A stretch of DNA of 64,000 nucleotides from a virus (IMGVR_UViG_3300036783_000170:10501-74500); one strand, 5' to 3'; shown: positions 5,164 through 48,671, numbered from the stretch's first letter. The notes: generated by a model not told the origin, from the letters alone. A program made the numbers and translations.

Positions 5164-5456
5164 GTGAGCCTATCGGAGTCGTCGCGCACGCCGGCTACGT
5201 CTTCCTAGACGTCCCGGACGACTGCGGGTGCCTGACGTACGAGCAGACCATGCGGCTGATATGGAAGCTCCAGCGCGCCTCGGGGGAGGCCATCAAGCAC
5301 CAGCTGAGGGGCCTGGACGGGTCCACCCGATCGGCGGTCCAGATGCTGACCGGGTTCTCCGACGAGAAGCTCGAAGAGCTGGGAGGTGTCGAGGATGAGT
5401 GACGATAAGCGCCCATCGGGGTCGCCGTGGCTGGACTCTGCCGACATCGAGTAGGA

Positions 5457-5479
5457 GGCCGCCGCTATACGCGGCGGCC
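5457..5479 (+). terminator. GC hairpin, possible U-less terminator
   Basis: GGCCGCCGC-TATAC-GCGGCGGCC, perfect 9-bp stem after a short ORF. Confidence 0.4.
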
Positions 5480-5600
5480 CTGCGGTGCCTAGTACCAGCA
5501 GTGGAACAGGTGCAGGACTACGTGGACGTAGAGCATCAAGACACCCCCTCTCGCCCTCGGCGGGACGAACCGACCACAACCTACTCGTAAGGAGATCGAC

Positions 5601-7152
5601 ATGCCTCGCAGGACCGGCCAGCAGGAGGTCGCCAACAGCATCCGCCCGACGACCAGCGAGCGCCCGCCGCGCCCCGTGCAGCGGTCGTCCAAGGACCGCG
5701 AGCTGAACGAGCTGCGGGCGCGGGTGACGATGCTGGAGGAGGCCGTGGTGGCGGCCTGGGAGCTGTGGACGGACTCGATCACTAACCCGAGCTACCGCGC
5801 TTACTGCGCCGAGGCGCTGGGCGAGACGGTCGACGAGATCGTCGCCCGGCGCCCCGACGTACTCAACCAGCCGTGAGCCGCCTCGTGTTCGGCGAGCCGT
5901 ACTCCGGCCCGGCCACGGGCTCCTGCACCTACGAGGAGTGCGCGGAGCCGGCGGCCTACGTGGTCGAGTGGGCCGACGGCCCCTACCTGTCGGAGACGTG
6001 CGTGGAGCACGGCGCGCTGCTCCGGCGGAAGTACCCCGAGTACGTCGCGCGCATCCGCAGCTCCTGACCGAGACCCTTCTCCCCTAAGCAAACTTGTAGT
6101 AAGATCCCGCCATCGACCCTCGCCGCCAGAGAGGGGAAGCAACATGGCGGAGCCCTACAGCGCGCTTGAGCGTCTGGACTACCAGACCCCCATCCCGTGC
6201 TACTACATCGACATGTCTCGCAGGGACGACTGCGAGACTGTCGCGCACATGCTCGTCACCCGCGAGTGCTCCTCCGGCCATCGGCTGGAGAACCCGTACT
6301 GCGTCGTCCACGCCACCGCCATGACCGGCGACCCGAGGTGCTGCCTCGCCTGCGGAGGAATGACTCGCTGCGTCTACGTGCGGCCTGTCCCTCCGGACTA
6401 CTGGCCCGGTGAGGACCGGTGATCCTCCTCCAGCTCGTGCTCCGGGCGCTGCTCTCGTGGCTGCCCCAGGACGCCTACGATACCGGGGGCGATGATGACT
6501 GATCTCCTACCGCACACGGAGTGCTTCTGCTGCATCTGCATCGCCCACGAGACAGGGCCGTCGAGCAGCATCATGATCCGTGAGGCACGGTGCCCGGTAC
6601 ACGGCGACGAGCCGACCTCGTGTCCGGTGCACCGTCGGGTCGCGGCGTGAGCACCCCGCAGAGGGGGCTGGCGATCTGGGTGGTCGTGGTCCTGCTGGCC
6701 GCCGCAGTCGGGTGGCTCACCGCTAGGGCGCCGCAAGGAGCCTTGTTAGACTCCGAGTAGCCAGAGAGTGACCGAGGGGACACCGCGTGACTAGATCAAG
6801 AGATCTCAAGGCCGAGTACGGCGACGAGTGGAAGCTCTACGTCGAGGTGGGCGCCGACATGGCCGCCGACCTCGTCCGCAAGGGGCTCGCCTCCCGCTCC
6901 GACCGACCGTACGTGGTCGACGTGACCGACCGGATCGTCTCGGGCCGCTGGGTGCCGCTCGGCGAGGGCTCGTACGTGCTGAGCGACACCACGCAGAGCC
7001 GGCCGAAGGTCAAGGGCCAGCGCGCCCAGGTCGGGCTCGGCTGGTGGGTAGACGGCGCCATCACCCGTGAGCGAGGTGTCCACACCCTGTGGATCGAGGG
7101 GCTCCCGTACAGCGTCTTCAAGCGGTTCGTGCGGCTGACCGACGCCGCGTAG
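5601..7152 (+). CDS. Small hypothetical ORFs (5601-5876, 5873-6067, 6144-6422, 6787-7152 and others)
   Basis: SD motifs and GC3 bias; no recognisable family. Confidence 0.55.
6082..6133 (+). promoter_or_regulatory. Early-type promoter
   Basis: ccctAAGCAAACTTGTAG, TAAGAT (6100-6105), GCCAGAGAG (6125). Confidence 0.6.
6731..6768 (+). promoter_or_regulatory. Early-type promoter
   Basis: ccgcAAGGAGCCTTgt, TAGACT (6747), GCCAGAGAG (6760). Confidence 0.65.
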
Positions 7153-7220
7153 CACTACACACAGACCCCCGGGGGGCGAGCAGCCAAAGGGCCTCGCCCT
7201 CCGGATGTGCGCCTGGACTA

Positions 7221-7261
7221 CTATAGGGATCCTTGATAACATGGCCCCACACGCCAGAGAG
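7221..7261 (+). promoter_or_regulatory. Early-type promoter
   Basis: ctatAGGGATCCTTga, TAACAT (7237), GCCAGAGAG (7253); preceded by a GC hairpin at ~7171-7200. Confidence 0.7.
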
Positions 7262-7276
7262 ACGAAGGAGACTGTC

Positions 7277-8049
7277 ATGGAGGAGGACCGCATCGACGGG
7301 ATGCTCCGGGAGATCGAGGGCCAGTGGTACGTCCAGCAGAGCGCGCTCCGCGAGGAGCAGGCCGAGGACGAGACGCCGGTGCCGAGCGTCCTGGCCGCTA
7401 TGGTCTGGCCGATGATCATCATCACCTGCGGCGCGTTCTGGGTGCTGCTCCTCGGCTTCCTCCTGGGGCTGTTCTGATGGCCGACCGCAGGCCCGCCTTC
7501 CGGCGTGGGATGCCCCCGCAGGCCGTGTACTCGCCGCGCCCGCAGCGCCGGGTCGTCAGGGACGCCCAGTACGACGGCTGGTGCTACGCGTGTAGCGAGC
7601 ACATCGACGCGGGCGACCGGATCACCCCCAGTGACGAGGGCTGGGTGCACGAGGAGTGCGGCCGGGAAGAGCCCGCGCCGTCGACTCGTCAGATGGGCGA
7701 CTACCACAGCGCTCCGGAGTTCTAGCCCGACAGGAGGATCTTCATGACGGAAGACGAGCGCTGCGAGCTGACGGAGCTGCTTCGGTCGGAGTGCTCGCAC
7801 TGCCGGCCAAACCGGGCGATGGAGAGCCTCGCCAACCGGGTCAACCGCCCGTGGCGTCCACCTGAGCAGCACAAGAGCGGCGACGGCCCTCGGGGGCGAG
7901 GCCTCCCCTTCAAGGAGTGGCTGGACGACTGCTTCGAGGCCAAGATGCCCGATACCTGCGTGTCGTGCGGCGGCCGGATCGCCCCTGGTGATCGGGTACG
8001 GCGCGTCCTGGAGTACAACACGGGCGTCATCCATGGTGAGTGCCCGTAG
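7277..8049 (+). CDS. Three small ORFs: membrane protein 7277-7477 and Zn-binding proteins 7477-7725, 7744-8049
   Basis: TM segment; CYAC..HIDAGD and CVSCGGRIAPGD...HGEC motifs. Confidence 0.6.
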
Positions 8050-8108
8050 CGCAGTAAGGGGATAAGCTGGCAGGCGACCGCCACCAGCTTCCTTAGGAGT
8101 ACCGCAGG

Positions 8109-8984
8109 ATGACCGTGACCTTCCAGGGAGGCCGGCTGCGGCCGACCCCCACCAAGCCGCGCCTCTGGCTCTCCCGCCACCTCACGGGCGCGGTGCCGGC
8201 CCCGGCGACCGCCGACTGGCTCTCGAAGGTGCAGAGCTGGCCGATGGGCCACAACGACTCGTGCGGCGACTGCACGATAGCCACCGAGCAGCACGCCATC
8301 GAGATCGTATCGACGTACGGGCAGGGCAAGACGACCACCATCGGCGACGACGTGGTGCTCGCCAAGTACGAGGCCCTGTCCGGCTACGACCCGGCCACCG
8401 GCGCCAACGACACCGGGCTCGTGGTCCAGGACGTGCTGAACGACTGGGTCAAGAACGGGATCGGCGGCCACAAGGCCCTCGCCTTCGCCCAGGTCGACCT
8501 CTCCAACGCCGCCGAGGTCAAGGCCGCGATCGCCATCTTCGGCTGGGTGTACCTCGGCATCAACTTCCCCGCCTCCGCGATGGACCAGTTCAACGCGGGC
8601 AAGCCGTGGGACGTGGTCAAGGGCGCCAGGATCGAGGGCGGCCACGCCGTTCCTCTGGGCTACTACGACTCCAGCAAGTACAAGGCGGTGACCTGGGGGC
8701 GTCCGCAGGACATGACTCTCGCCTTCTTTCAGAAGTATGCAGAGGAGTGCTGGGCAGTGATCACGCCGGAGTGGCTCTCCACCGTCGGCACCAGCCCCAC
8801 CGGGCTCGACCTGTACGGCCTCGGCCAGGACCTGTCCAGCATCACCGGGAGGGCGAACCCGTTCCCGAAGCCTCAGCCGCAGCCGACTCCGTCTCCCACA
8901 CCCGCCCCGACCCCGAAGCCATCCGACCCGGACTCGGTGTTCGCCATGGCGGCCAAGGCGTGGCTGGCGGCCAAGCATTTTTAG
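8109..8984 (+). CDS. Papain-fold (C1-like) cysteine peptidase with Pro-rich tail
   Basis: MGHNDSCGDCTIA (catalytic Cys), GGHAVPLGYY (His), VTWG; PQPQPTPSPTPAPTPKP linker; SD TAGGAG. Confidence 0.75.
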   Translation: MTVTFQGGRLRPTPTKPRLWLSRHLTGAVPAPATADWLSKVQSWPMGHNDSCGDCTIATEQHAIEIVSTYGQGKTTTIGDDVVLAKYEALSGYDPATGANDTGLVVQDVLNDWVKNGIGGHKALAFAQVDLSNAAEVKAAIAIFGWVYLGINFPASAMDQFNAGKPWDVVKGARIEGGHAVPLGYYDSSKYKAVTWGRPQDMTLAFFQKYAEECWAVITPEWLSTVGTSPTGLDLYGLGQDLSSITGRANPFPKPQPQPTPSPTPAPTPKPSDPDSVFAMAAKAWLAAKHF

Positions 8985-9021
8985 GAGCCCTCTGGCGGTT
9001 GGTCACCGGCAGGGGGCGTAC

Positions 9022-9642
9022 GTGAGTAGGCCGACACCCGAGTTCGACTTCAGCGAGGCCAGCCAGGAGCGCGTCCAGGAGTCGGCGCTGGTGATGCACC
9101 TGGCGCTGGACCTGCGGCGTCTGGGCACCGACGAGGACGTGCTCTGGGCCCAGGAACTTACAAAAGAGATGCCGAGGTACGGCGACGCCGGCCCGTCCTG
9201 GTGGGCGGAGAAGGTGCAGGAGCGACTGGCGGAGATCGCCAGGAGGTAAGGCCGGCGGCGCTTGGTCAGTGGGTATCGAGAGATGCCTGGCCGCCGGCCT
9301 ACAAGGATCCTAGCAGAAGAGAGGGCTCGCGTGACACCAGAGGAGATGGCCCGAGAGCTGGGTCTCGTGCGGATCGCTCTCGGGCGCGTGTCGGTGTACG
9401 AGGGCATCACGGACGTGAGTCCCACCGTGATGATGGTGGACGACCTGGTCCGGAACTACGCCGAGCTGGAAGCTCGGATCGACGCCGCCATGATGGTCCT
9501 GACGGGCCTCAAGGGGCTCCAAGAGGCCCGGGGCGACTTCCTGCTCTACAACGACCTCACCGATGCGCTGGACTCCGTCTACGGCCTCCTGAGGGGCGGG
9601 ACGCGGGTACCTGACGACCCGTCCGCCCTCGACGGGGATTGA
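9022..9642 (+). CDS. Two hypothetical ORFs (9022-9249, 9331-9642)
   Basis: GC3 bias. Confidence 0.5.
9299..9316. promoter_or_regulatory. 18-bp dyad site
   Basis: CTACAAGGATCCTaGcAG, 16/18 match to the ideal palindrome. Confidence 0.6.
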
Positions 9643-20679: not shown

Positions 20680-21417
20680 TTGCGTCATGACGCGGCACGA
20701 CCGAAGAAGCTGGTCGCCGAGGACCAGGAGTCCACGGCGGCGGAGCCGATGAGAGGCAGCCAGCCGTCCGTGCGCCGCAACCCCTCCACAGATCAGAAGA
20801 AGACGCGCCGGCAGATGCAGCGATCCCAGCAGAGGACCGCCATCAGCGTCTGCGCGGCCTGTCAGGCGTCGTCAGCCGGACCCTGCCAGTCATGCGGCTG
20901 CACCCTCGTCACGAGGGCGACCGTGCTCCCTACCAACGCGGAGCGACTGCAGTCGGGCCACGTCCTGCGGCTGCCGTCCGGCCAACGGGTCAAGGTCAAG
21001 GGCGTCAGGCCGCACGAGAACAGCGGCGGCCACCTGTACCTGGACACCGACATAGGCACCAGCGTGGTGGACCGCAAGGCCCAGTTCCACGTCATGCAGG
21101 GCGACGCCGCCGAGCGCGGCGCCCCGTTCAAGCAGCCGACCAACCGCGAGACCCCCGGCAACTTCAACACCAACCTGGCCGAGTCCACGGAGAAGCCCGA
21201 GGCCGCCCCGGCGGCCGGCAAGTGCCCCAACTGCGGCAAGGGTCCGCTGGTCAACCACGGGGGCAAGATGGTGTGCCGGAACTGCGGCTACACCAGCTCC
21301 GGCGGCGACTCCGACTTCGGCGACGCAGGGTACCGACGCCCCACCGCCTTCCTGCACGACGGCATGACGGCCGTAGCCCGGCGAGCCCAGACGCTCGTGG
21401 AGAGGACAGAACAGTGA
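20680..21417 (+). CDS. First head-module protein with two Zn ribbons
   Basis: CAAC..CQSCG, central beta-rich segment, CPNCG..CRNCG; TTG start 9 nt after GGAGG (track start 20671). Confidence 0.65.
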   Translation: MRHDAARPKKLVAEDQESTAAEPMRGSQPSVRRNPSTDQKKTRRQMQRSQQRTAISVCAACQASSAGPCQSCGCTLVTRATVLPTNAERLQSGHVLRLPSGQRVKVKGVRPHENSGGHLYLDTDIGTSVVDRKAQFHVMQGDAAERGAPFKQPTNRETPGNFNTNLAESTEKPEAAPAAGKCPNCGKGPLVNHGGKMVCRNCGYTSSGGDSDFGDAGYRRPTAFLHDGMTAVARRAQTLVERTEQ

Positions 21418-23780
21418 CCACCCGAGCAGACATCTTGCGGTCCATCAACGCGGCCCGCTCCGGCGAGGAGCAGCGGCTAGCGGTGCTCGCCCTGGACGCC
21501 TACGACCGGCAGGTCGTCGCGCGCCAGCGGTCCGACCGAGAGCTGGACCTGACCAACCGCGTCGTCCAGGACCGGATGGTCGCGGTCGCCACGCACGAGC
21601 GGTCCACCATCCAGACCGACTGGCTCGGCGACGTGACCGCCTCGGCCGGACCGGACGCCGAGCAGAAGGTGATGGCCGAGGCCGCCCTCTGGTACCGGGG
21701 CACGCCGGAGATGGTGCGCCAGGACGCCGAGGAGTTCACCATCCAGGCGCAGGGCAAGGCCCGGCGCGTCGCCAGCGCGTACGGCGAGTCGGCCGAGGCG
21801 CTGGAGCGGTCGTTCCTGAACTACGTCGCGTTCCTGAGCCGGCAGGCAGCCAGCGGGCTGGACCAGGTCCAGCAGCTGGTGGACTCGCACGAGGACCCGA
21901 AGCGGACCCCGCTGCCGACCGAGGTCTTCGACACCTTCCAGCCCGAGGTCGACCCGGTCAACGCGGGCGTCACCGGCACCGAGACCTCCGAGCGCGCCCC
22001 GCTGATGCAGGAGATCATGCAGGGCGACGCGTACGGCGAGGGACCGGAGAAGCCGGGAGGGCACTCCACCAGCTTCGACGGCTCCGGCGGATACTCCGAG
22101 GTGCCCGCCGACGCCGCCGACGCGCACCGGACGGCGGCGGTCAACCAGCTGCTCACCCTCGATGACTACCGGCTGCAGTTCGCCGCCGAGGCCCGGAGGG
22201 CGGACCCAAAAGAAGGTAGCTCCCACGAGGGGCGCATCGACCACGAGACCAGCAGCGACGGGCCCCGGATCCCGAGCCTGCCCGGCGCCCCGTCGGACTC
22301 GAAGGCCCGCGAGTACCAGGACGAGTTCGAGGAGAACACGAAGAGGCTGCGGGACGAGTTCGAGGAGAACGAGCGCTCGCGCAAGCAGGGCGCGTCCGGG
22401 CTGGACGAGGTCCAGCAGGTCGTGAACCCGCACGAGGACCCCGCCCCGACGCCGATGCCGACGGACGTGGCCTTCCCGTGGGTGGACGGGCAGGACGAGT
22501 ACGAGCAGGACCACCCCGGCCAGAAGGCCGCCGTGGCCCGGCACCGGCTGGTGGCCTCGATCCTGAGCAAGGAGCCGGCCTCCGTCACTCGTGCTGAGCT
22601 GCGGGAAGTGCTCTCGTTCGCCAAGGACGTGCGCGGCGGCGAGTACGCCAGCACGATGGCGGCGAAGCTGGCCAGCGCCGACACCGGCCCGAGCACCTGG
22701 CACCAGGCCGTCTACCACCTCGGGGTGGCTGATCCTGAGGTCGCGCGTACTGCAGTCAAGAAGACCGCAGACCAGTGGACCGCGCCGCACGAGGTCCCCG
22801 GCGGCCAGGTCGCCAACTCGCCGGCCACCACGCCGGAGTCGTCGAAGGGCACGTACGCGGACGGGTACGCGGAGGGCGGCGAGGACGCCAGGTCCGGCGA
22901 GGCCCCCACCTTCGCGGACGCGTCCAGCCACGCTCCGGAGTTCGTCCAGGGCCACACCAAGGGCTACCAGGACGCCAAGCAGACCGTCGAGAAGGGCCTG
23001 CCCAAGGACGAGCCGGCCTCGATGGGCGGCCAGGCCGCGCAGACCCCCGGCGCCGACGCCACCAGTAACCCGTACGCCGACCCCGGCGGCCGGTCGTACG
23101 CGAGGAAGATCTCCAGCCTCGTCAGCACCACGGCGGCCCGGCAGGACGCGGACTTCCTCAAGGGCATGCGGTACGCCCAGAAGTGGCGCCCAGGGCGTCC
23201 GCTGGTGACGCAGGGCTCCGCCGAGTTCGAGGGCGGCCTGTACGCGGGCATCAGCGACAACGCCGACAACCAGTACGCCTGGGTCGCGGAGCACCAGCGG
23301 CTCGCCCGGCGGGACCAGCGGTTCGCGGACCGGATCAGTCGGCACGCGGAGTACAGCGAGACGGTGGCTACCGACCTGCGGGCCATGGTCGTCGGGCCGT
23401 ACCTGCGGCTGGAGGCGGCCACGTCCACCGACCTGGACACCACGGCGCCGAACACCAGCCCCAGCCCGGTCGGGGACACCCCGATCAACGGGCCCGGCAA
23501 GGTCCCCCCGCTGGCTGGCCAGGAGGACCCGGCCGCCGCTGGTGGACCTGCGCCATATAATTCAGCTCCTCCCTACGGCAAACCTGTGGTTCCGCAGGGA
23601 GAGATGGCTGCCGGTACAGGGTCAAATACGACCATCAATACCACCATAGGTGGTCCGATGGATCAGGCCGCTGAAGAACGTCGACGCATGCGCCCTACCA
23701 CCTTGGCCTTTAGGCATCGAGTACAAGCGTCTCTGGTGCAGGACCGTCAGGAGAGGGTGAATGCCAGCTCTCGCCCTTGA
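21414..23780 (+). CDS. Large acidic head-associated protein (788 aa) with an internal repeat and an internal slippery site
   Basis: GTG start overlapping the upstream TGA; repeat xQxASGLDxVQQxVxxHEDP twice; GAC CCA AAA G at 22203. Confidence 0.75.
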   Translation: MTTRADILRSINAARSGEEQRLAVLALDAYDRQVVARQRSDRELDLTNRVVQDRMVAVATHERSTIQTDWLGDVTASAGPDAEQKVMAEAALWYRGTPEMVRQDAEEFTIQAQGKARRVASAYGESAEALERSFLNYVAFLSRQAASGLDQVQQLVDSHEDPKRTPLPTEVFDTFQPEVDPVNAGVTGTETSERAPLMQEIMQGDAYGEGPEKPGGHSTSFDGSGGYSEVPADAADAHRTAAVNQLLTLDDYRLQFAAEARRADPKEGSSHEGRIDHETSSDGPRIPSLPGAPSDSKAREYQDEFEENTKRLRDEFEENERSRKQGASGLDEVQQVVNPHEDPAPTPMPTDVAFPWVDGQDEYEQDHPGQKAAVARHRLVASILSKEPASVTRAELREVLSFAKDVRGGEYASTMAAKLASADTGPSTWHQAVYHLGVADPEVARTAVKKTADQWTAPHEVPGGQVANSPATTPESSKGTYADGYAEGGEDARSGEAPTFADASSHAPEFVQGHTKGYQDAKQTVEKGLPKDEPASMGGQAAQTPGADATSNPYADPGGRSYARKISSLVSTTAARQDADFLKGMRYAQKWRPGRPLVTQGSAEFEGGLYAGISDNADNQYAWVAEHQRLARRDQRFADRISRHAEYSETVATDLRAMVVGPYLRLEAATSTDLDTTAPNTSPSPVGDTPINGPGKVPPLAGQEDPAAAGGPAPYNSAPPYGKPVVPQGEMAAGTGSNTTINTTIGGPMDQAAEERRRMRPTTLAFRHRVQASLVQDRQERVNASSRP

Positions 23781-24264
23781 TCACTCGCGTCATTTGCGTG
23801 GGACTGATGCCGTACTCTCTGGCCAGTCCTCGATAGGTGCCCGTGCCTTCGATGAATCTCCTTCGGACTTCGTGAACCTGATCCCAGGTGAGGATGGCTC
23901 GGCCGTGGTCTTCGCCGCGACGCAGGTGTCCTCCGTCTCGCCCCCGCTCGACTCTGTCCCTGACGTTTTGAGCGTTGTTGCCGAGATAGAGGTGGGACAG
24001 ATTTACGCAAGGTCGGTTATCACACCGATGGAGAACGTGCTCTTCGTCAGTGATCGCTGGAGCAACCATGATGCGGTAGATCCAGCGATGGGCTCGTACG
24101 ACTCGGCGCCGGTTACGGCTATGAGGGTTAGGTGCCCCTCCATGAAACTGCCCGTACCCCTTGGCGTCGGTATGACTTGTCCAAGTCCAGCAGGCGTCTT
24201 CGCCTCTCGACTTGTCGACCTTGATCCAGAAGCGGGCGAGAAGATCTTCAACGGTTGCCTCCAT
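23710..24264 (-). mobile_element. Free-standing HNH homing endonuclease
   Basis: RFWIKVDKS...CWTW...KGYGQF...RAHRWIY...VLHRCDNRPCVNLSHLYLGNNAQNVRDR...KGESW; lower GC than neighbours; antisense. Confidence 0.88.
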
Positions 24265-24293
24265 GGGTGCAACCTTACCTGGGGGAGGACCAC

Positions 24294-24836
24294 ATGTCTG
24301 ATGAGCTGAACGACCTGATGTGGGTGGAGGCCACGCGAGACCTGGAGTCCGAGGCGAGCGAGATGTCCGCCGAGCGGGCCAGGATCGCCAGCTCCTCGCT
24401 GTGGCCGTTCCTGGCCGCCGCCCGCTCCGAGCCCGAGTTCGACGGCCGCCTCAGCGTCGCCGCCGAGCACCTTGAGGCCGTCGCCGTCGAGACCGGCCAC
24501 CCCGTCGAGGCGCTGGCCGCCGACCTGCGGGGGCAGTGGCGGCTGCTCGCGGAGGCTCGCGGCTCCGACCCGGTCGACCACGAGGGGCACGACTACGACC
24601 ACGACGACGAGGACCCCGAGGGCGACGAGGAGGACGCGCAGAACGGCGCCGAGTGGGACAAGCACATGGGCTACAGCCCGTACGACCACTACGCGTCGCT
24701 GCGCACCGCCTTGGAGGAGGGCGTCGACCCGCTCTCCTGGGTGGAGGACGAGGCGGAGTACGGCTCCGGAGCCGAGGAGGTAGGCGGCCACCAGAGCGGC
24801 GCCACCGCGTCCCGGGACGCCGACCCAAAAGCCTGA
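24294..24836 (+). CDS. Acidic head-module protein (180 aa); probable N-terminal part of a -1 frameshift fusion
   Basis: SD GGAGG; ends GAC CCA AAA GCC TGA. Confidence 0.75.
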   Translation: MSDELNDLMWVEATRDLESEASEMSAERARIASSSLWPFLAAARSEPEFDGRLSVAAEHLEAVAVETGHPVEALAADLRGQWRLLAEARGSDPVDHEGHDYDHDDEDPEGDEEDAQNGAEWDKHMGYSPYDHYASLRTALEEGVDPLSWVEDEAEYGSGAEEVGGHQSGATASRDADPKA

Positions 24837-25909
24837 GCCCCGTGCAGGGGCAGGGTCCGGTATCGGACACCAACGTCCCCCAGGACCCAGGCGGGTCCGG
24901 CGCGGGGATGGCCCCGATGCCCGACTCGGGCGTGCCTGGCGGGGGCGCCCCAAGCAGCGGCGGGGGCAGCGACTTCGACCCCGCGTCCCTCGCGGGCGCG
25001 AACGCCAACACGACCCCCGAGGGCACCCAGTCCGACATGACGGGCCGGATGCTCAACTCCGCCATGCTGGTGGCCGCCGCGAACCCCGAGCTGGACGACG
25101 AGGCGTGCGCGACCCTCGCGGTCCTGGCCGGCCGCCGGCTGGCCGCGAACCCGCTGGGGTACGGCCACCGTCCGTCCGTGGAGGGCCCGCTCACGCAGCG
25201 GGTCAAGAACCGGGTCAACGAGCTGGTCAGCGGCGAGTACCAGAGGCGACACCAGCCGCGCCCGCAGGGCCGCCCGAGCGGGCAGCCCGGCGCGGGCAAG
25301 GGCGTCCGCCCTACCCCGCGCCCGGCCCCGAGCGTGGGCGAGCAGCTGCTGAACCTCGTCCCCCTCAAGCCGCACGAGCGCAGGCTGGTGGACGGCATCC
25401 GGGGGCTCATCAAGAAGCACCGCGACCGGGCGGGCAACCCTCCTCCTCCGCACCACAACGCCCCTCCGGTACCGGCCCCGCCGTGGCTGGACGAGGACGA
25501 CCAGGAGGACGTCGACCGGCCCGACGAGCAGCCCCGGCCGGCCGCGCCTGGGGTGCTACCTCCGGGGGCTAGCCCCCACGACTTGAACGGTGACGACGAG
25601 GGCTCGTCCGAGGGCGAGTCCAGCGGCAGCAAGGCCGCCGTGCGGCACCAGGCCGACAACCCGCTGGACTTCGGCAACCGGGCGCCGGTGCCGGAGGGCC
25701 CGCTCGAGCAGAAGGCGGTCGACTCCATCAACGAGGCGGAGGACGCGGTCCCGATGCCCGGCGACACCTCGAAGGTACCGGGCATGGGGGGCGGCAAGGG
25801 CTCCGGAGGCAAGGCGCCGGAGGGCGCTGGTGCCGGCGCGGGCGAGGCGGCCGGCGGCGAGGCGGCCCTGGGCGAGGTGGGCGAGCTGGCCCCGATGATC
25901 GCGGTCTGA
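24830..25909 (+). CDS. Pro/Gly/acidic-rich -1-frame extension of 24294-24836
   Basis: GC3-rich frame open through the slippery heptamer; no convincing SD for GTG 24842 or the downstream ATGs. Confidence 0.65.
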   Translation, partial: SLSPVQGQGPVSDTNVPQDPGGSGAGMAPMPDSGVPGGGAPSSGGGSDFDPASLAGANANTTPEGTQSDMTGRMLNSAMLVAAANPELDDEACATLAVLAGRRLAANPLGYGHRPSVEGPLTQRVKNRVNELVSGEYQRRHQPRPQGRPSGQPGAGKGVRPTPRPAPSVGEQLLNLVPLKPHERRLVDGIRGLIKKHRDRAGNPPPPHHNAPPVPAPPWLDEDDQEDVDRPDEQPRPAAPGVLPPGASPHDLNGDDEGSSEGESSGSKAAVRHQADNPLDFGNRAPVPEGPLEQKAVDSINEAEDAVPMPGDTSKVPGMGGGKGSGGKAPEGAGAGAGEAAGGEAALGEVGELAPMIAV

Positions 25910-26964: not shown

Positions 26965-28252
26965 ATGCCGAAGTACCCCGTCAACGACCGTAAGTGCGAG
27001 GACTGCGGCGAGCGCGTCCCGCCGGGCACGCCACGCCGGACCTCGGACGGCCAGCTCGTGTGCTCGAAGTGCTTCACGCGCCGGTCCGCCATGACCCTCT
27101 ACCGCCAGGCGGCCGAGCAGTACCCGACCTCGGAGCCGGTGGCCCCCTCGCGCCCTGACTGGCGCCAGGATGCCGCCAGGGCCCGCACCGCCGCGCTCGT
27201 CAAGAGGGCGCACGATTCGGGCAATCAGGTAGATATCTACCACTGTCCGTTCTGCGGCAGCGGTCAGGTCGTGGGTAGATCTGACCGGACCGTCGAGTGC
27301 ACGTTCTGCAACGCCGTGTTCACCGTCCAGGTCCAGCCGATGTACTCCGGCGTCCCGCAGACCATCGACGGCGAGTCCGTCGAGGAGCCCGGCGCCCCGG
27401 GGATGGATGGCGAGCCAGACGTGGCCGGGGACGAGATGCTCCCCGAGGAGCAGGGCACCATGAACGGCCAGCTGCCCCCCGAGGAGGACGCGGACCAGGA
27501 CGGCGAGCCCGACGACGAGGAGGGCGACGACGAGCCCGCGTTCCTGAAGGGCTCGATGCTGCGGACCGCCAACGGCACCCCCGTGCCGATCCCCGACCTG
27601 ATCAACCACATGGCGCTGCTCCAGGCCACCGACGAGGAGCGGCCGGCGATCCTGGCCCGCATCCGCGAGGAGCGCGCACGATGACCCGGTACCGCGCGGC
27701 CGTAGACATGCGCCTGCCTGGCCAGTCCGTCAGCCGCGACGACGTGCTGGACATGGACACCTCGACCGCCATCGCCCGCAGGGACGTGGAGGGCATGGTC
27801 TCTCGCGGGCTCCTGGTGGCCGTGGAGGACGAGCAGGACCAGCCACCGGAGCAGGAGCCCGACTCAGCGGCCGAGGAGCGCATGTCGACTCCTCGGGGCC
27901 GCAAGAGGGGGCGCTGATGAGCGCGCCCCCGTCGATGCTCGCCCTCGTCCGCGACGGGAAGATCGACATCCCGTTCCTGTGCGTGGAGCGGGAGTGCGAG
28001 GGCAGCCGCTACCACACGCCGACGCCGCTGGAGGTCGCGCCGTACCTGTTCCACGTGGACGACATCGCCGCGTACTACGGCCCGTCCACGAGCGACGCGA
28101 CCTGGCTATGCGGCACCTGCGCGGCCAACCTCCGCGTCTTCTTCGGGCTGATGCGCGGCACCGACGGCAGCATGCCCTGGGAGGTCCAGCGGGAGTTCGG
28201 CAACGGCATCCGCCGGATCGGCAAGATGATGTGGAGGGCAGCTGATGCCTGA
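26965..28252 (+). CDS. Three pre-portal ORFs (26965-27684 Zn-ribbon/acidic, 27681-27917, 27917-28252 Cys motif)
   Basis: CEDCG..CSKC and CPFCGS..CTFCN; coupled starts. Confidence 0.7.
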
Positions 28253-30479
28253 GCGCCGCAGGAGGAGGGTCGTACGCGCCCCCCAGGCGTCCCGACGCGC
28301 GTCGGTGGCGCAGCAGCAGGCCACCTTCGCCCAGCTCGCCTCGGCCGCCCGTAGGGGCGGCTCGCAGGCCGTGGAGGGGCAGGAGGCGGAGCTGGCCGAG
28401 ATGGCCAGGTCGCGCCGGCGTATCGCGGTGGCCTCGGGCGCCGGGTCGGCCCCGTACGGCGGGGGCGGCAGCGTCAGCTTCGCCACCGGGCGGCCCCGAG
28501 ACCCGTTCTTCTACTGGCGGCAGAACAACCTCTTCTACGACTTCGAGGACAACACCCAGCTGACTCGGGTGCGGCAGTTCTGCCACCTGCTGTACACGAG
28601 CCACTCGCTGATCGGGTCCTGCGTCGACATCTACACCGAGTACCCGCTGCTCGGGATGGAGCTGCGGTCGAAGGACGACAAGATCACGGACTTCTACTCA
28701 GATCTTTTTATGTCGCCGCGCCGGCTGAACTACCCGAAGTTCTTGGCCGACCTCGGCCGGTCGTACTGGCTGCTCGGCGAGGCGTGGCCGTTCGGCTCCT
28801 TTAACGAGAAGCTCGGCGTCTGGGAGGACGAGGAGCTTCTCAACCCGGACGACATCGACGTGGAGCGCTCCCCGTTCCAGCGGGAGCCGCGCTACCTGAT
28901 GCGGCTGCCCTCGACGCTGCGCGAGCTGCTGCAGAGCCGCTCCCCCGCGTACGAGTACCAGAAGCTGATCCAGGCGTACCCGGAGCTGGTTCGGTACCAG
29001 AACGAGGCGGAGATGATGCCCGTCAGCGGCATCCTGCTCCGGCAGCTGAAGTTCGACGGGCTGATGTTCAACAAGCGCGGCATCCCGCTGCTCAACCGGG
29101 CGCTGCGCCCGATCGTGCAGGAGGAGATGCTCAACTCGGCGATGGACGCGATCGCCGATCGGCTGTACGTGCCGCTGCTGATCGCCAAGCTCGGGGCGTC
29201 CGCCAACGACCTGGGCACCGAGGTACCGTGGATCCCCACCGAAGACGACATGGCCGCGTTCGAGGAGACCGCCGACGCCGCGCTGGCCGCCGACTTCCGG
29301 CTGCTGATCACCAACTTCGCCACCAGCGTGGAGTCCGTGTTCGGCCGGGAGCAGATGCCGGACCTGACCGCCGACTTCGAGCGCATCGAGGACAAGATCC
29401 TCCAGACGTTCGGGCTCTCTAAGACGATGCTCACCGGGGCGAGTTCAGGCGAGACGTACGCGGCGGACGCGCTCAACAGGGACCTCATCAGCCAGATGCT
29501 GACCCGGTACCAGCGGATGCTCTCCGACCACTACGAGGAGCGCGCGCTCGTGGTCGCCGAGGCGCAGGGGCACTTTGATTACGAGGAACGCGGCGGTAAG
29601 AAGTACGTCAAGATGGAAGAGATCCTCGAAGTGGACGAGGAGAGCGGCGAGGAACGAATCATCCAGCAGCCCAAGCTGCTCATCCCAGAGCTTCGCTTCA
29701 AGACGCTCAACCTGAAAGACGAGGAGGCCGAGCGGGCCTTCTACGAGCAGCTCCGCGAGGCCGGCGTCCCGATCTCCATGAAGACGCGGCTGATCAACGT
29801 GCCCATCGACCTCCAGGACGAGATGGAGATCAGCCAGGACGAGCAGGTCCAGCTCGCGGTGAAGGAGCAGGAGACGAGAAAGGCGATCTTCCTGGCGCTC
29901 CGTCAGAAGGGGCTGCCGATCCCAGCGGACCTGCTGGCGGACTTCAGTCCGCAGATCAACCCTCTCCCGCAGCCGGCGGACATGGCCAGCCGGGTGCCGA
30001 TGCTCGGTATCGACCCGCTGACCGACACCCCGAACCTCGCCCCGACCGGCGAGGACCTGGCCGCGCTGCCCACCGAGGGCACCGAGATCGCGGGCCAGCC
30101 CAGCCAGCCCGTGGAGCCGGTCGCGGTGATCGGCGGAGACGGCTCGATCACGCCGATGGGCGACCAGTCGCAGCGACCACCGGAGAGTGACGAGATGCGC
30201 GCCGACATGCCAAAGGCGGCGTCGATACTGAGCGAGGCCGCGCTGTGGCGGAACGCCAAGACGATGCGCCACGTGGTAGACGAGCAGCTCGGCAAGGTCT
30301 CGGACGAGATCGCTCGGCAGCGCGACATGCTGGTCACTGCGCAGGTGGTCCAGGGTCAGCACGAGGGCGACGAGACGCCGCCGTTGGACATGGAGCCCGC
30401 CGGACTCACAGGGCCGAGGCACGTTGGAATGCGTCGATACCTGGACATAGACGACACCGTACCAATGGAGGAGTGGTAG
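28245..30479 (+). CDS. Portal protein
   Basis: 744 aa; FCHLLYTSHSLIGSCVDIYTEYPL, DLGRSYWLLGEAW, RGIPLLNRA, LYVPLLIAKLG motifs as in Bxz1-like portals; position in head module. Confidence 0.82.
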   Translation: MPERRRRRVVRAPQASRRASVAQQQATFAQLASAARRGGSQAVEGQEAELAEMARSRRRIAVASGAGSAPYGGGGSVSFATGRPRDPFFYWRQNNLFYDFEDNTQLTRVRQFCHLLYTSHSLIGSCVDIYTEYPLLGMELRSKDDKITDFYSDLFMSPRRLNYPKFLADLGRSYWLLGEAWPFGSFNEKLGVWEDEELLNPDDIDVERSPFQREPRYLMRLPSTLRELLQSRSPAYEYQKLIQAYPELVRYQNEAEMMPVSGILLRQLKFDGLMFNKRGIPLLNRALRPIVQEEMLNSAMDAIADRLYVPLLIAKLGASANDLGTEVPWIPTEDDMAAFEETADAALAADFRLLITNFATSVESVFGREQMPDLTADFERIEDKILQTFGLSKTMLTGASSGETYAADALNRDLISQMLTRYQRMLSDHYEERALVVAEAQGHFDYEERGGKKYVKMEEILEVDEESGEERIIQQPKLLIPELRFKTLNLKDEEAERAFYEQLREAGVPISMKTRLINVPIDLQDEMEISQDEQVQLAVKEQETRKAIFLALRQKGLPIPADLLADFSPQINPLPQPADMASRVPMLGIDPLTDTPNLAPTGEDLAALPTEGTEIAGQPSQPVEPVAVIGGDGSITPMGDQSQRPPESDEMRADMPKAASILSEAALWRNAKTMRHVVDEQLGKVSDEIARQRDMLVTAQVVQGQHEGDETPPLDMEPAGLTGPRHVGMRRYLDIDDTVPMEEW

Positions 30480-34536: not shown

Positions 34537-34567
34537 CTGCCGCCACGTATCCGAGCCCGAGGAATGG
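34537..34567 (+). promoter_or_regulatory. Putative late promoter
   Basis: CTGCCG ... GAATGGG, 25-nt offset. Confidence 0.55.
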
Positions 34568-34590
34568 GTAAGGACACGGAGGTGGGCGGG

Positions 34591-36798
34591 ATGCTGCGTA
34601 AGTTCGCGACCGCGATGGTGCTCGATAAGTTCGTGGTGCCAGCGGACGCCGGGGCCGAGGCCATGCGGCGGATCGCGCACCGGCACGAGTTCCAGTACGA
34701 CGTGAGGCCGGGCTACCTCTATGTCCGTTCTCGTATGATTAGTTCCAGATGTAACGACAACTACGACGAGTTCCCCGCAGAAGAGATCAAGAAGGCGTAC
34801 CGGACCTTCGTCGGCAAGCCCGTCTTCGTCAACCACAACAACGAGGACCACCGGCGCGCCCGGGGCGTGATCATCGACGCCGCCCTGCACGACGACCGGA
34901 ACCCCGACGGCACCCCCGACCTGTGGGTCGAGGGGCTGATGGAGATCGACGCCGTCCGGTTCCCGATGCTGGCCAAGGCCATCGTCGCCGGCCACGTGGA
35001 CCGCACCTCGATGGGCACCGACGTGGCGTTCTCCGTCTGCTCGATCTGCAACAACAAGGCCACCACGCCGCTGGAGTACTGCCGGCACATCCCCGCGCAG
35101 AAGGGGCGCCGGATCTTCCGCGCCAACCCGAAGACCGGCAAGAGGGTCGGCGTGCTGGTCCGGGAGACCTGCTACGGGCTCTCATTCTTCGAGAACAGCC
35201 TGCTGGTCGAGCCCCCGGCGGACCCGACGGCGTTCTTCACGGGCGTCGACGCGCGCGGGCTGAGCGCCCACGCCGCCCGGCACCCGGAGGCGCCGAAGGG
35301 CAAGCCGACCCCTAAGCGTCAGACCCCCGCCGCGCGCCGGCAGGAGGGCGAGCGGCTCGCGTCCCTGCGCGCCGTCGTCGCCGAGGGCGAGGAGGCTGGG
35401 CCGCCGCCGAACCACCGGCCGCAGGGCGACCCCGTGGTCCGCGAGGAGGCCGCCTGCGCGACCTGCGGCGGCGCGATCTTCCACTCAAAGAACGGCGACG
35501 TGTGGATCCACTCCGAGCAGACCGGCGGCGGGATGCCGCACCAGGCCAACCCCGGCGAGGAGGGGTACGACGGCGCCAGCGGCCAGATGGTCCCGCAGAA
35601 CAAGGCGTACGAGAGCCACTCGACCAGCAAGGAGTCGCACCTCTCCGACGGCGCGCACAGCGAGAAGGAGATGGACGACTACAACCGTGGCCGCCGGGTG
35701 GACCTGGAGGACCCGATCGACCTCAAGAGCCACCTGATGGAGACCCACGGCTGGGCTCCGGAGGACTTCCACCAGCACGCCATGGACCGCCACCACCCGG
35801 CGCTCGGGGACACCGACGGCGCGAGCCGGCCGTACACCAGCACCGAGGTCCAGCACATCCACGCGTTCGAGCACACCCCGGCCGGCGGCGGCCACGACTT
35901 CCCGGACGCCCGGGTGGAGGACGGCATGCACAGGCACGCGTCGCTGGTGGCCGAGGCCAAGCCGAAGTACGAGGACCCGGGCGAGCACCCGGCGATGAAG
36001 GCGCTCGGCCTGCACCCCGGCAACGTCGTCGGCCACTGGGACATGGCCACCGACGAGGAGAAGGGCCAGGGCAAGAACTGGTACGAGGACGCCCACCACA
36101 TCGCCAAGGCGATCGCGGGCGGCGACGCGCACAAGGGCGCGGGGGTGCTGGCCGCGTACTCCCCGCAGACCGCGTGGCCGGCGAACATGTTCAACGCGTC
36201 CCGGTCGTTCCGGGAGGGCAAGGCGATCGGCGGCAAGGGCTCCGGCGTGATGGCTTCTGGCCAGATGCGCGACGCCGCGCAGCGGATCATGAACGGCGAG
36301 CGGCACGAGGACGTATTCAAGGGCAACAAGATCAGCGACTTCGCGCACCTGATCGAGCACGGCGGCAACAAGGACGACAACGACCCGAAGGTCGTCGTCG
36401 ACCGACACGCGCTGTCGGTGGCCGCTGGCCGTCGGCTCCCGGAGACCGAGACGGGCCCCGCGCAGGCTGCGATCGCGAACCGCCACTACTACCAGCACGC
36501 GGTGGACACCTACCACCAGGCCGCGAAGCACATCAACGAGCGCGACGGCCGCACGGGCGAGGACCAGGTGAAGCCGCACGAGGTGCAGGCCGTCACCTGG
36601 CTGGCCCGGCAGCGGATGAACCAGAAGGAGGACCGCGACTCCGGTACCGCGATGGGCAAGGGCCGCGCGAGCGGCTTCGAGAAGGCGCACCAGCAGTGGC
36701 TGGAGCATGCCCGGAACCACTACGACGGGTTGGAAGGCAACATGCACATGGCCCTGCTGCGCGCGCCCAAGGAGTCCCAAAGGCGCACAGGTGCCTAG
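34591..36798 (+). CDS. Probable capsid maturation protease fused to a His-rich linker and an HhH-GPD-like (DUF7178-like) domain
   Basis: N-term YLYVRSRMISSRCNDNYDEFP..EI..AYRTFVGKPVFVNHNN...TSMG...CSIC...CYG..FFENS.LVEPPADP.A; C-term WYEDA...AGVLAAYSP..AW..N...GNKISDF...VVVDRHA...QAVTW; ATG 34591 has SD GGAGG. Confidence 0.7.
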   Translation: MLRKFATAMVLDKFVVPADAGAEAMRRIAHRHEFQYDVRPGYLYVRSRMISSRCNDNYDEFPAEEIKKAYRTFVGKPVFVNHNNEDHRRARGVIIDAALHDDRNPDGTPDLWVEGLMEIDAVRFPMLAKAIVAGHVDRTSMGTDVAFSVCSICNNKATTPLEYCRHIPAQKGRRIFRANPKTGKRVGVLVRETCYGLSFFENSLLVEPPADPTAFFTGVDARGLSAHAARHPEAPKGKPTPKRQTPAARRQEGERLASLRAVVAEGEEAGPPPNHRPQGDPVVREEAACATCGGAIFHSKNGDVWIHSEQTGGGMPHQANPGEEGYDGASGQMVPQNKAYESHSTSKESHLSDGAHSEKEMDDYNRGRRVDLEDPIDLKSHLMETHGWAPEDFHQHAMDRHHPALGDTDGASRPYTSTEVQHIHAFEHTPAGGGHDFPDARVEDGMHRHASLVAEAKPKYEDPGEHPAMKALGLHPGNVVGHWDMATDEEKGQGKNWYEDAHHIAKAIAGGDAHKGAGVLAAYSPQTAWPANMFNASRSFREGKAIGGKGSGVMASGQMRDAAQRIMNGERHEDVFKGNKISDFAHLIEHGGNKDDNDPKVVVDRHALSVAAGRRLPETETGPAQAAIANRHYYQHAVDTYHQAAKHINERDGRTGEDQVKPHEVQAVTWLARQRMNQKEDRDSGTAMGKGRASGFEKAHQQWLEHARNHYDGLEGNMHMALLRAPKESQRRTGA

Positions 36799-39741: not shown

Positions 39742-40722
39742 ATGAGCACTGCGCTCGCCCCCAGCGGCCTGTACGGCAAGGTCGCCATCAAGAGCGACGA
39801 CTACGTCGCCGCACTGGAGCGGAAGCGGGCCTCGGGCCCGCTGGACCACACCCAGAAGGTCCGTCGCCTGGCGATGGTCCTCTCCGACCAGGTCGACGGT
39901 ATCCGCCGGCTCGGCGTCGGCATGGTCGGCCCGATCCAGCTGAAGCTGCGCTACCAGGGCATCACCCGCAACGTGCTGGTCGAGGACCCGGTCACCCCGG
40001 GCACCCCGGTCCAGTACGACGTGTGGGACGACCTGGGCCAGGCGTACCTCATGTCCAGCACCGACGGCGAGGTCCGCGTGACCCCGTTCGAGGGCAAGCG
40101 CGTGGACGTGAACTTCTTCCGGATCGCCTCGCAGCCCACGATCCGCAAGGAGGACCTGTACTACCTCCGGATCAACGCGGTGGAGCAGGTCCAGGACGAG
40201 ACCAAGCAGTCGATCCTCAAGCAGGAGGACAACCGGCTGCTGCAGATCCTGCAGGCCGCGATCACCGACTACGCCAGCCGGCCGGACCACGTGGTCACCC
40301 CGAACCACACGATCACCGAGGCGTCGGGCTACCTGACCCCCGGCTCGCTGTACTCGGCGGTCGCGATGACGGACCTGCACGAGCTGCAGTCGGCGCGGAT
40401 CCTGATCAACCCGTTCGACTTCCGGGACATGTACCGCTGGGATATCAACCAGACCGGCTGGGCCTTCAAGGACCGGGTCGTCGCGGGTGAGACCATCACC
40501 AGCTTCGGCGAGTTCCAGATCCAGCGGTCGATCATCGTCCCGCAGAACAAGATCTTCTTGACCCCGGAGCCGAACTTCCTCGGTGTCTTCCCGGTCCTGT
40601 ACTCCCTGGACGTGGAGGAGAACCACCAGGTCGCCAGCTTCATGAAGGGCTGGGTCTTCGATGAGATGGTCAATATGACCGTTTTGAACCCCAGGGGCCT
40701 GGCAGTGATTAACAAGGTTTAG
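39742..40722 (+). CDS. Major capsid protein (Bxz1/cluster C-like)
   Basis: MVGPIQLKLRYQGITRNVLVED..TPG.PVQYDV.DDLGQAY...GEVRVTPFEGKR...KEDLYYLR...WDINQTGWAFKD...FLGVFPVLYSLDVEE...KGWV.DE...LNPRG. Confidence 0.92.
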   Translation: MSTALAPSGLYGKVAIKSDDYVAALERKRASGPLDHTQKVRRLAMVLSDQVDGIRRLGVGMVGPIQLKLRYQGITRNVLVEDPVTPGTPVQYDVWDDLGQAYLMSSTDGEVRVTPFEGKRVDVNFFRIASQPTIRKEDLYYLRINAVEQVQDETKQSILKQEDNRLLQILQAAITDYASRPDHVVTPNHTITEASGYLTPGSLYSAVAMTDLHELQSARILINPFDFRDMYRWDINQTGWAFKDRVVAGETITSFGEFQIQRSIIVPQNKIFLTPEPNFLGVFPVLYSLDVEENHQVASFMKGWVFDEMVNMTVLNPRGLAVINKV

Positions 40723-47828: not shown

Positions 47829-48671
47829 ATGAGCGAGTCCCGGGCCCCGTCGTCGTGGCGGGCCGAGAGGATCGGGCCGATGGTCCCGTTCATGCCGGAC
47901 TCCTCCACGCAGCGAGTCGCCGCCTCCGGGATGATCCTGCGGGTGATGGCCGGCTCGGCGATCCACGGCACCTCGATCGGCGGCAGCGACCGGGACGAGA
48001 TGGGCGTCTGCGTCGAGCCGCCGCAGACCGTAGTCGGCCTGAAGAGGTTCGAGCAGTACCAGTTCCGCTCGCAGCCGCAGGGGGTGGTGTCTGGCCCTGG
48101 AGACCTGGACCTCACGATCTACGGGCTCCGCAAGTACGCCGCGCTGGCCGCGCAGGGCAACCCGACGATCTTGTCGCTTCTGTTCACCCGAGACGAGCAC
48201 ACGCTCTACGCCACCGGGATCGGCGACGACCTGCGGCAGCGCCGCGCCATGTTCCTCTCCCGGCAGGCCGGCGCCCGGTTCCGGGGCTACCTGGAGTCGC
48301 AGCGGCGCGGGCTGATGGGCCTGCGCTCCGGAGGCAGCCGTAACCAGGGCCGGTCCGACATCCGTGAGAAGTACGGGTTCGACACGAAGTTCGCGGCGCA
48401 TATGGTCCGGCTGGGGCTACAGGGGGTCGAGCTGCTCGCCACCGGCGAGATCAGCCTCCCGGTGCCCGAGCCCGATCGCACCTGGCTGCTGGAGCTGCGC
48501 CGGGGCGAGCACACCAAGCAGGAGGCGCTGGCCCGCGCCGAGCACCTGGAGCACCAGATCGACGGGCTGATGCGCTCCGACGAGTCCCCGCTCCCGGAGC
48601 AGCCCGCCTGGGACGACATCAACGACTGGCTGGCAGCCGTCCACCGCCAGCACTGGGGGTGGGATCGGTGA
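47829..48671 (+). CDS. Pol-beta superfamily nucleotidyltransferase (PF10127/RlaP-like)
   Basis: AGSAIHGT...SDRDEMGV (GS-DxD), D.TIYGLRKY..LA.QGNP.IL.LLF, FDTKFAAHMVRL..QG.ELL. Confidence 0.85.
   Translation: MSESRAPSSWRAERIGPMVPFMPDSSTQRVAASGMILRVMAGSAIHGTSIGGSDRDEMGVCVEPPQTVVGLKRFEQYQFRSQPQGVVSGPGDLDLTIYGLRKYAALAAQGNPTILSLLFTRDEHTLYATGIGDDLRQRRAMFLSRQAGARFRGYLESQRRGLMGLRSGGSRNQGRSDIREKYGFDTKFAAHMVRLGLQGVELLATGEISLPVPEPDRTWLLELRRGEHTKQEALARAEHLEHQIDGLMRSDESPLPEQPAWDDINDWLAAVHRQHWGWDR

Follow-up and report, generated by a model that had tools for sequence, protein, structure and literature searches.

Can a phage gene whose reading frame stays open to its end also encode a second, much shorter protein? 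This question is raised by gene A (positions 21414 to 23780, + strand), which lies in IMGVR_UViG_3300036783_000170:10501-74500, the bases 10501-74500 of a 74.5-kb soil viral contig from IMG/VR with a CheckV completeness of about 50%. This stretch of 64,000 nucleotides, hereafter the window, was analysed at its full length and all window positions are counted from its first letter. A sequence-only reading had proposed that a slippery sequence inside gene A causes a dnaX-like -1 frameshift, so that a form of about 268 amino acids is made besides the form of 788 amino acids. Comparative sequence evidence supports this proposal, and we consider it probable that the site, called site 1 here, acts as a dnaX-type programmed -1 ribosomal frameshift site, from which a short and a long isoform would arise in a fixed proportion.

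The zero-frame product of gene A has 788 amino acids and starts at a GTG codon at 21414, a start that is backed by homologues beginning with MTTRA(D/E)IL. The gene has a GC content at third codon positions (GC3) of about 0.9. Its layout is an N module, which consists of a helical domain and a disordered region, followed by a linker and a C module. The slippery heptamer C CCA AAA is found at 22205 to 22211 (+ strand), in the region of codons 264-266 and in the X XXY YYZ phase, where the zero frame reads GAC CCA AAA GAA GGT AGC. As the sequence-only reading had it, the -1 frame continues with AGA (22211-22213) and AGG (22214-22216) and ends at TAG (22217-22219), all on the + strand. The predicted short product thus consists of residues 1-266 plus Arg-Arg, that is 268 amino acids with the C-terminus ...ADPKRR. 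The AlphaFold model of protein A puts the slip site directly behind a helix, in a segment predicted to be disordered.

The slippery codons are part of a 10-mer, GACCCAAAAG, of which the window has exactly two copies, at 22203 and at 24822, both on the + strand. Only 0.01 copies are expected by chance, and none of 100 shuffled sequences contained two. Each copy lies in a real gene, whose frame reads it as GAC CCA AAA (D-P-K), so the earlier claim of an identical 10-mer in the same frame holds. The copy in gene A (GAC CCA AAA G, 22203 to 22212) is identical at the aligned place in the four homologues described below; the other copy marks site 2 at the end of gene B. Heptamers of the form XXXYYYZ with A or T at Y occur 11 times on the two strands of the whole window, and sites 1 and 2 are the only ones in phase with a real gene. 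One of the others, CCCAAAG at 36776, was dropped as a candidate since it is out of phase with a real gene. Slippage during transcription was tentatively set aside as well, as the A and T runs are just 3-4 bases long.

Codon usage was computed over 30 genes of the window. A/T-ending codons make up 7% of all codons, CCA accounts for 4.5% of the proline codons and AAA for 2.1% of the lysine codons. Out of 25 Pro-Lys pairs in these genes, two are coded by CCA AAA, namely those of site 1 and site 2. In gene A the codons CCA AAA GAA GGT form a run of four, which is the island of A/T-ending codons that had been described.

A search of 5.8 billion proteins retrieved 102 relatives of protein A in metagenomes, none of which carries a name or a domain. 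DNA was compared for four of the five closest homologues (L002, L003, L004 and L005, with 76, 66, 63 and 58% identity, respectively). Further single-protein scans of viral and metagenome contigs added no close relative beyond L003, and among 50,697 phage records no cultured relative was matched by blastn or tblastn with the region and with protein A. All four compared homologues carry GCG GAC CCA AAA followed by a G-N-A codon at the aligned place. In L002, L003 and L004 the -1 frame reaches TAG two codons on, at the same place as in the window, kept by a rare GGT or GCT codon and then AGC; in L005 the -1 stop comes after 12 codons.

In a codon alignment of these five genes, which have diverged by up to 0.87 changes per site, there are 304 columns with an identical degenerate residue in all five, and the same codon is used in 136 of them. 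Just two A/T-ending codons, CCA265 and AAA266, are shared by all five. Synonymous-site conservation, which had been suggested as a check of the frameshift, is therefore seen at the two slippery codons. Homologues encoding DPK with CCG or AAG had been named as evidence to the contrary; the four homologues all have DPK at this place and all write it as CCA AAA. In the L005 gene DPK occurs two more times, coded by CCG AAG and CCC AAG. The codon after Lys266 (22212-22214) is GAA, GTA, GCA, GTA and GCA in the five genes. Because the encoded residue varies between E, V and A while the first and third bases are fixed, this codon points to a constraint that would act at the nucleotide level rather than at the protein level. 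These codons are rare and A-ending, and the fixed A is not kept at site 2.

Scanning viral contigs with a profile brought in 51 more distant loci, and 29 gene A open reading frames (ORFs) were surveyed for in-phase heptamers. Exactly one per gene was found in 13 of the 29 ORFs. By phase, 13 heptamers stand in the canonical phase and 0 and 2 in the other two phases. Twelve of the 13 in-phase heptamers lie at one place, 15-25 residues after a conserved LDD(F/Y)R helix, at the end of the N module. The sequence of the heptamer differs between lineages: C CCA AAA is used by the clade of the window, G GGA AAA by L007, L009, L011 and L012, C CCT TTC by L010 and L015, and A AAT TTT by L032, where it would truncate. 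A -1 stop follows within two codons at 10 of the 12 truncating sites, compared to 3.1% of random codon positions in the same genes. In a tree of the N module, CCCAAAA and GGGAAAA each form a single clade, CCCTTTC is found in two lineages and AAATTTT in three. As in the window clade, the slippery codons stand out in the second clade, with GGA and AAA of G GGA AAA as the sole A/T-ending codons kept in all four genes. GGGAAAA has been reported as a -1 slip sequence in the tail chaperone genes of actinobacteriophages (PMC4626039, PMC11749239). A literature search on CCCAAAA and frameshifting found nothing relevant to phages, and no frameshift element of Rfam was matched.

The same boundary is handled differently in other relatives. 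In L030 and L038 the N module is an ORF of its own, whose stop lies 2-7 codons past A AAT TTT, and the -1 frame enters the C module; the conserved KGAPFAGY of the C module precedes any downstream start codon. From their frames, these two loci appear to be extending frameshifts. L032 has the same A AAT TTT with the frames swapped, so that a slip would truncate. In six further loci (L018, L020, L024, L033, L034 and L036) the modules are separate genes, the second with its own ATG or GTG start adjoining the stop of the first. A free N module together with a linked or separate C module thus recurs among the relatives, which argues that the 268 amino acid form would be functional rather than waste.

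Two further observations concern these distant loci. In L035 (about 6380), L041 (about 6360), L042 (about 6610) and L025 (about 6470) the boundary between N and C module reads CTG GAT TTT (RLDF) with the rare codon TTT, and in L041 a -1 TGA follows one codon after GAT TTT, together with a GC hairpin. G GAT TTT is outside the strict X XXY YYZ pattern and was not captured by the heptamer survey; it is the heptamer that drives frameshifting in red clover necrotic mosaic virus. In L011 an in-phase G GGA AAG (6959) stands directly before the TGA stop of gene A, with a -1 stop after 4 codons.

The alternative that survives best, which we still regard as unlikely, is a rare-codon pause at a domain boundary that serves co-translational folding and has no functional frameshift product. 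The position of the site in a disordered linker after a helix fits such a pause, and so does the rarity of CCA, AAA, GAA and GGT. A pause, however, could be built from any rare codons, whereas what is kept across the lineages is X XXY YYZ in phase (13 against 0 and 2), and the CCCTTTC heptamer even includes the common codon TTC. Neither the -1 stops within two codons at 10 of 12 sites nor the relatives with the C module in the -1 frame are explained by it.

Several observations weigh against a programmed frameshift at site 1, starting with the elements that might stimulate it. The sequence-only reading had described a hairpin with a 5-bp stem and a 5-nucleotide loop, and GCTCC-CACGA-GGGGC is indeed present at 22219 to 22233 (+ strand), 7 nucleotides past the heptamer and with one G.U pair. 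It is weak (-5.6 kcal/mol, with a local minimum free energy of -8.3), it is absent from the minimum free energy fold of the downstream 60 nucleotides, which is no better than shuffled sequences (z +0.45), and it is not conserved in sequence, as L004 and L005 have downstream hairpins that differ from that of the window (z -2.3 and -2.6). The description of the hairpin was correct and its contribution is marginal. Another possible stimulator is a Shine-Dalgarno-like GGAGG at 22195 to 22199 (+ strand), of which GGAG is present in 5 of 5 homologues; its spacing of 5-6 nucleotides upstream of the heptamer is shorter than that in dnaX (10 nucleotides). Moreover, the five sequenced members of the CCCAAAA clade are monophyletic and count as one origin. 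A canonical heptamer is missing from about half of the full-length homologues, so the short form is not universally required. The rarity of the codons was measured on the phage's own genes. Finally, a single sequencing run, that of the source soil metagenome, contains this DNA, and no RNA run is listed.

Some of these points would also suit slippage as tolerated noise, with a nearby -1 stop that limits the damage and a functionless short form: many full-length homologues do without the heptamer, and the stimulatory elements at site 1 are weak. We give this a slightly smaller chance than the pause. One synonymous change towards the preferred codons would remove the noise, yet the slippery codons are the sole rare codons kept, and this in two independent clades. 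In addition, some relatives have a separate gene for a free N-module protein.

The second copy of the heptamer shows what a programmed frameshift would do in this phage when the frames are the other way round. Gene B (24294 to 24836, + strand; traced by tblastn with the homologues of L002-L005) encodes 180 amino acids and ends with ...ADPKA (CCA AAA GCC TGA). Its C CCA AAA at 24824 to 24830 (+ strand) stands one codon before the stop, and 6 nucleotides past it follows the hairpin GCCCC-GTGCA-GGGGC (24837 to 24851, + strand; -9.9 kcal/mol). Heptamer, stop and hairpin are conserved in the window and in three homologous loci (L003 5657, L004 4496 and L005 11242), and the hairpin, as GCCCC-N5-GGGGC, is part of the minimum free energy fold in each of the 4 loci where it occurs. 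Gene C (24830 to 25909, + strand) is the -1 frame counted from the slip, and a slip at site 2 is read as fusing gene B to gene C, extending the product to a B-C protein of about 538 amino acids.

Three lines of comparison bear on this fusion. The GTG at 24842 of the window, a possible start of gene C, is GTA in L003 and L005, where the residues between the slip site and the gene C start assigned by the gene caller are conserved and no start codon separates the slip site from the conserved N-terminal sequence of gene C. The amino acid conservation of gene C begins at the slip site. In all distant loci B and C are one continuous ORF. Because B-C is one ORF in the distant loci and gene C has no start ahead of its conserved N-terminal sequence in L003 and L005, the heptamer and its context would serve recoding in this phage. 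At the B/C boundary, several of the distant B-C ORFs hold an in-phase C CCT TTC that is followed, two codons on, by a -1 TAG and then by strong hairpins, a layout that looks like the mirror arrangement of site 2. The claim that two matched cassettes have opposite outcomes in neighbouring genes is thus borne out at the level of the sequence, with a conserved site 2 that joins ORFs which are continuous in distant relatives. As further observations on these proteins, gene C contains two copies of an NPLDFG motif, and a segment of some distant B-C proteins is shared with protein A (residues of about 190-234), a hint at related building blocks in A and B-C.

With both sites in view, selection on the peptide R-x-A-D-P-K, for example as a maturation-protease site in proteins A and B with codons that are inherited or coincidental, can be weighed. 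R-x-A-D-P-K is encoded at both sites and a prohead protease-like gene is present at 34564-36798. Such selection would not fix the rarest synonymous codons over up to 0.87 changes per site, nor would it keep the first and third bases of a codon whose residue varies after the K. Furthermore, distant relatives do not have the peptide at the boundary (GQ|GK, AA|PF and P|NF are found instead) and yet have a heptamer. We consider this explanation improbable, more so than tolerated noise; selection on the peptide could, however, coexist with frameshifting. Least probable of all is a DNA or RNA signal apart from translation, such as a protein-binding, processing or recombination site, for which one could cite an identical 10-mer found twice within 2.6 kb and conserved in relatives, since the relatives carry unrelated sequences that share just the slippery pattern and the phase, both copies are in the same codon phase, Rfam gives no match and the frame structure of site 2 itself demands recoding. 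What disfavours all four alternatives is that each of them leaves the phase-specific heptamers of differing sequence and the adjacent -1 stops unexplained.

A programmed -1 frameshift would work as follows. The ribosome on gene A decodes CCA (Pro265) and AAA (Lys266), and a fraction of the ribosomes would slip back by one base and re-pair on CCC and AAA. The slipped ribosomes would read AGA AGG, stop at TAG and release a protein of 268 amino acids, which comprises the N-terminal helical domain, the first ASGLDQVQQ/PTPLPT motif, the disordered region and one helix. Non-slipping ribosomes would go on to make the protein of 788 amino acids, in which the N module is tethered to the C module, and the ratio of the isoforms would be set by the efficiency of the slip, as in E. 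coli dnaX. At the end of gene B the same heptamer would act in the opposite way, extending B into C. Because the slip at site 1 truncates A and the slip at site 2 extends B into C, two genes would give four products. The signal, the conservation at synonymous sites, the other heptamers that relatives have in its place at this boundary and the -1 stops close by are direct observations on the DNA. That ribosomes slip here is what we infer, along with the efficiency of the slip and the roles of the isoforms.

The function of protein A gives little to hold on to. The AlphaFold model has a mean predicted local distance difference test score (pLDDT) of 70.6 and consists of helical domains and long disordered linkers. 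Protein A has no match to a Pfam family (E <= 0.01) or to a PHROG, no sequence-profile match in the PDB and nothing informative in the ESM Atlas. AlphaFold models of both the full-length protein and the short form were compared with BFVD, with the PDB (Foldseek) and with VIA without an informative match, the best one being a helical hairpin with a Z of 7.7. The label 'head protein' of the sequence-only reading is not borne out, as there is no Pfam, PHROG, PDB-sequence or fold match behind it. Gene A repeats an ASGLDQVQQ..PTPLPT motif (residues of about 146-177 and 327-358), with one copy on either side of the slip site.

The position of the genes is more informative. The window has a GC content of about 68%, and the genes run in the direction of the + strand. 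The slip-site genes A and B-C sit 4.5 kb upstream of the portal gene, and gene A is on the same strand as, and 5' of, the genes for the portal (28245-30479, +), the protease-like protein (34564-36798, +) and the major head protein (39742-40722, +), each of which has a PHROG match; tail genes with PHROG matches lie near 59-63 kb. This order places gene A in the head-gene module, and it is the sole pointer towards the label 'head protein'. Because the genes are in an operon just upstream of the portal gene, the isoforms of gene A would probably act in virion assembly. As regards fixed product ratios, the earlier suggestion that the paired cassettes provide stoichiometry control for head assembly would be a reasonable inference.

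The portal protein shows about 40% identity to its counterparts in large actinobacterial phages, namely Rhodococcus phages Finch and E3, Gordonia phage Stormageddon and Mycobacterium phages Myrna and Phabba, and on this basis the phage appears to be an uncultured relative of that group. The related contigs belong to a high-GC, uncultured group and are about 150-165 kb long. Finch (L057) has two hypothetical genes of 799 and 526 amino acids upstream of its portal gene (5413-9392), with sizes like those of A and B-C; no sequence similarity to A and B-C was detectable for these two genes. An in-phase G GGA AAG in gp12 of Finch was set aside because 70 codons separate it from its -1 stop.

Between genes A and B an HNH homing-endonuclease gene is found on the - strand (23710 to 24264; Pfam: PF13392, 27.6 bits against a cut-off of 24.8). 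The insert of about 510 nucleotides lies in a low-GC tract (23525-24300, GC 55-60%) and is absent from L003-L005; it has no part in the recoding system. The last 80 or so codons of gene A in the window are unusually often A/T-ending, as is expected for a co-conversion tract. Enzymes related to translation are also present, namely a nucleotidyltransferase (phrog_388, window 47829-48671) and RF-1-domain and Thg1-like proteins in L005 (4562-5733). A tie between these enzymes and recoding is pure speculation.

Taken across the family, the arrangements suggest a broader idea, which we put forward tentatively and lean slightly against. The A and B-C family might be under selection for a fixed mix of free N module and tethered N and C modules, a mix that would have been met repeatedly at one boundary, in at least four interchangeable ways (truncating -1 slip, extending -1 slip, split genes and plain fusion), with at least four heptamers and in two adjacent genes. 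If this is true, the family is a natural experiment on the birth, flipping and loss of recoding sites, and, since both genes of the window clade use an identical cassette, one tRNA or factor could adjust the two ratios jointly. The chief value of the system is evolutionary, in that a family toggles between recoding arrangements in two adjacent genes. Two adjacent recoding sites, several heptamers and relatives that go by truncation, extension or splitting allow direct tests of selection on isoform ratios and of the evolution of recoding signals. They are also a first handle on two large, conserved and unannotated genes near the portal gene of an uncultured group of high-GC phages of about 155 kb. 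Annotations of the window clade should merge gene C with B and list a second, short product for gene A. Truncating, dnaX-type frameshifts escape gene callers because the ORF stays open, and hence they are almost never annotated in phages.

Among the known systems dnaX is the closest in its logic. In E. coli dnaX the -1 frame stops almost at once, after one extra residue, and the heptamer A AAA AAG is preceded by a Shine-Dalgarno-like element about 10 nucleotides upstream. Gene A shares with it an in-phase heptamer inside a long ORF, a near-immediate -1 stop (after two extra residues) and, as predicted, a truncated isoform without the C-terminal domains next to a full-length isoform at a fixed ratio. 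Protein A differs in that it is a phage protein that is not homologous to dnaX, with no Pfam hit and no PDB sequence match. In place of A AAA AAG and a spacing of about 10 nucleotides, gene A has C CCA AAA, a Shine-Dalgarno-like GGAG 5-6 nucleotides upstream and a weak hairpin. Unlike dnaX, the relatives of gene A also switch among truncating, extending, split and fused arrangements. The site in gene A works like that of dnaX and yet stands outside the dnaX family.

In phages, the major head protein of Lactobacillus phage A2 is said, from work of Garcia et al. in 2004 (listed in PMC10885494), to undergo a -1 frameshift that gives two forms of one protein. Gene A is alike in being a head-region gene with a -1 frameshift and two forms, which are predicted in its case. 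In A2 the frameshift extends a known capsid protein, whereas in gene A the slip would shorten a protein without an assigned function.

The tail chaperone G/GT of lambda has, as far as the papers that cite the original work describe it, a conserved -1 slip (Xu, Hendrix and Duda 2004, as cited in PMC4626039, PMC10885494). As in G/GT, a -1 slip in a late phage gene would set the ratio of a short and a long product, with heptamers that vary by lineage at a position that is kept. The GGGAAAA used by actinobacteriophage tail chaperones (PMC11749239) is found here in the clade of L007, L009, L011 and L012. The G/GT sites extend, whereas site 1 truncates and it is site 2 that extends. Furthermore, genes A and B-C are upstream of the portal gene and not between the tail tube and tape measure genes, and they have no sequence similarity to G/GT. 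Measured against these systems, site 1 and its relatives most likely add a new gene family to a known recoding mechanism.

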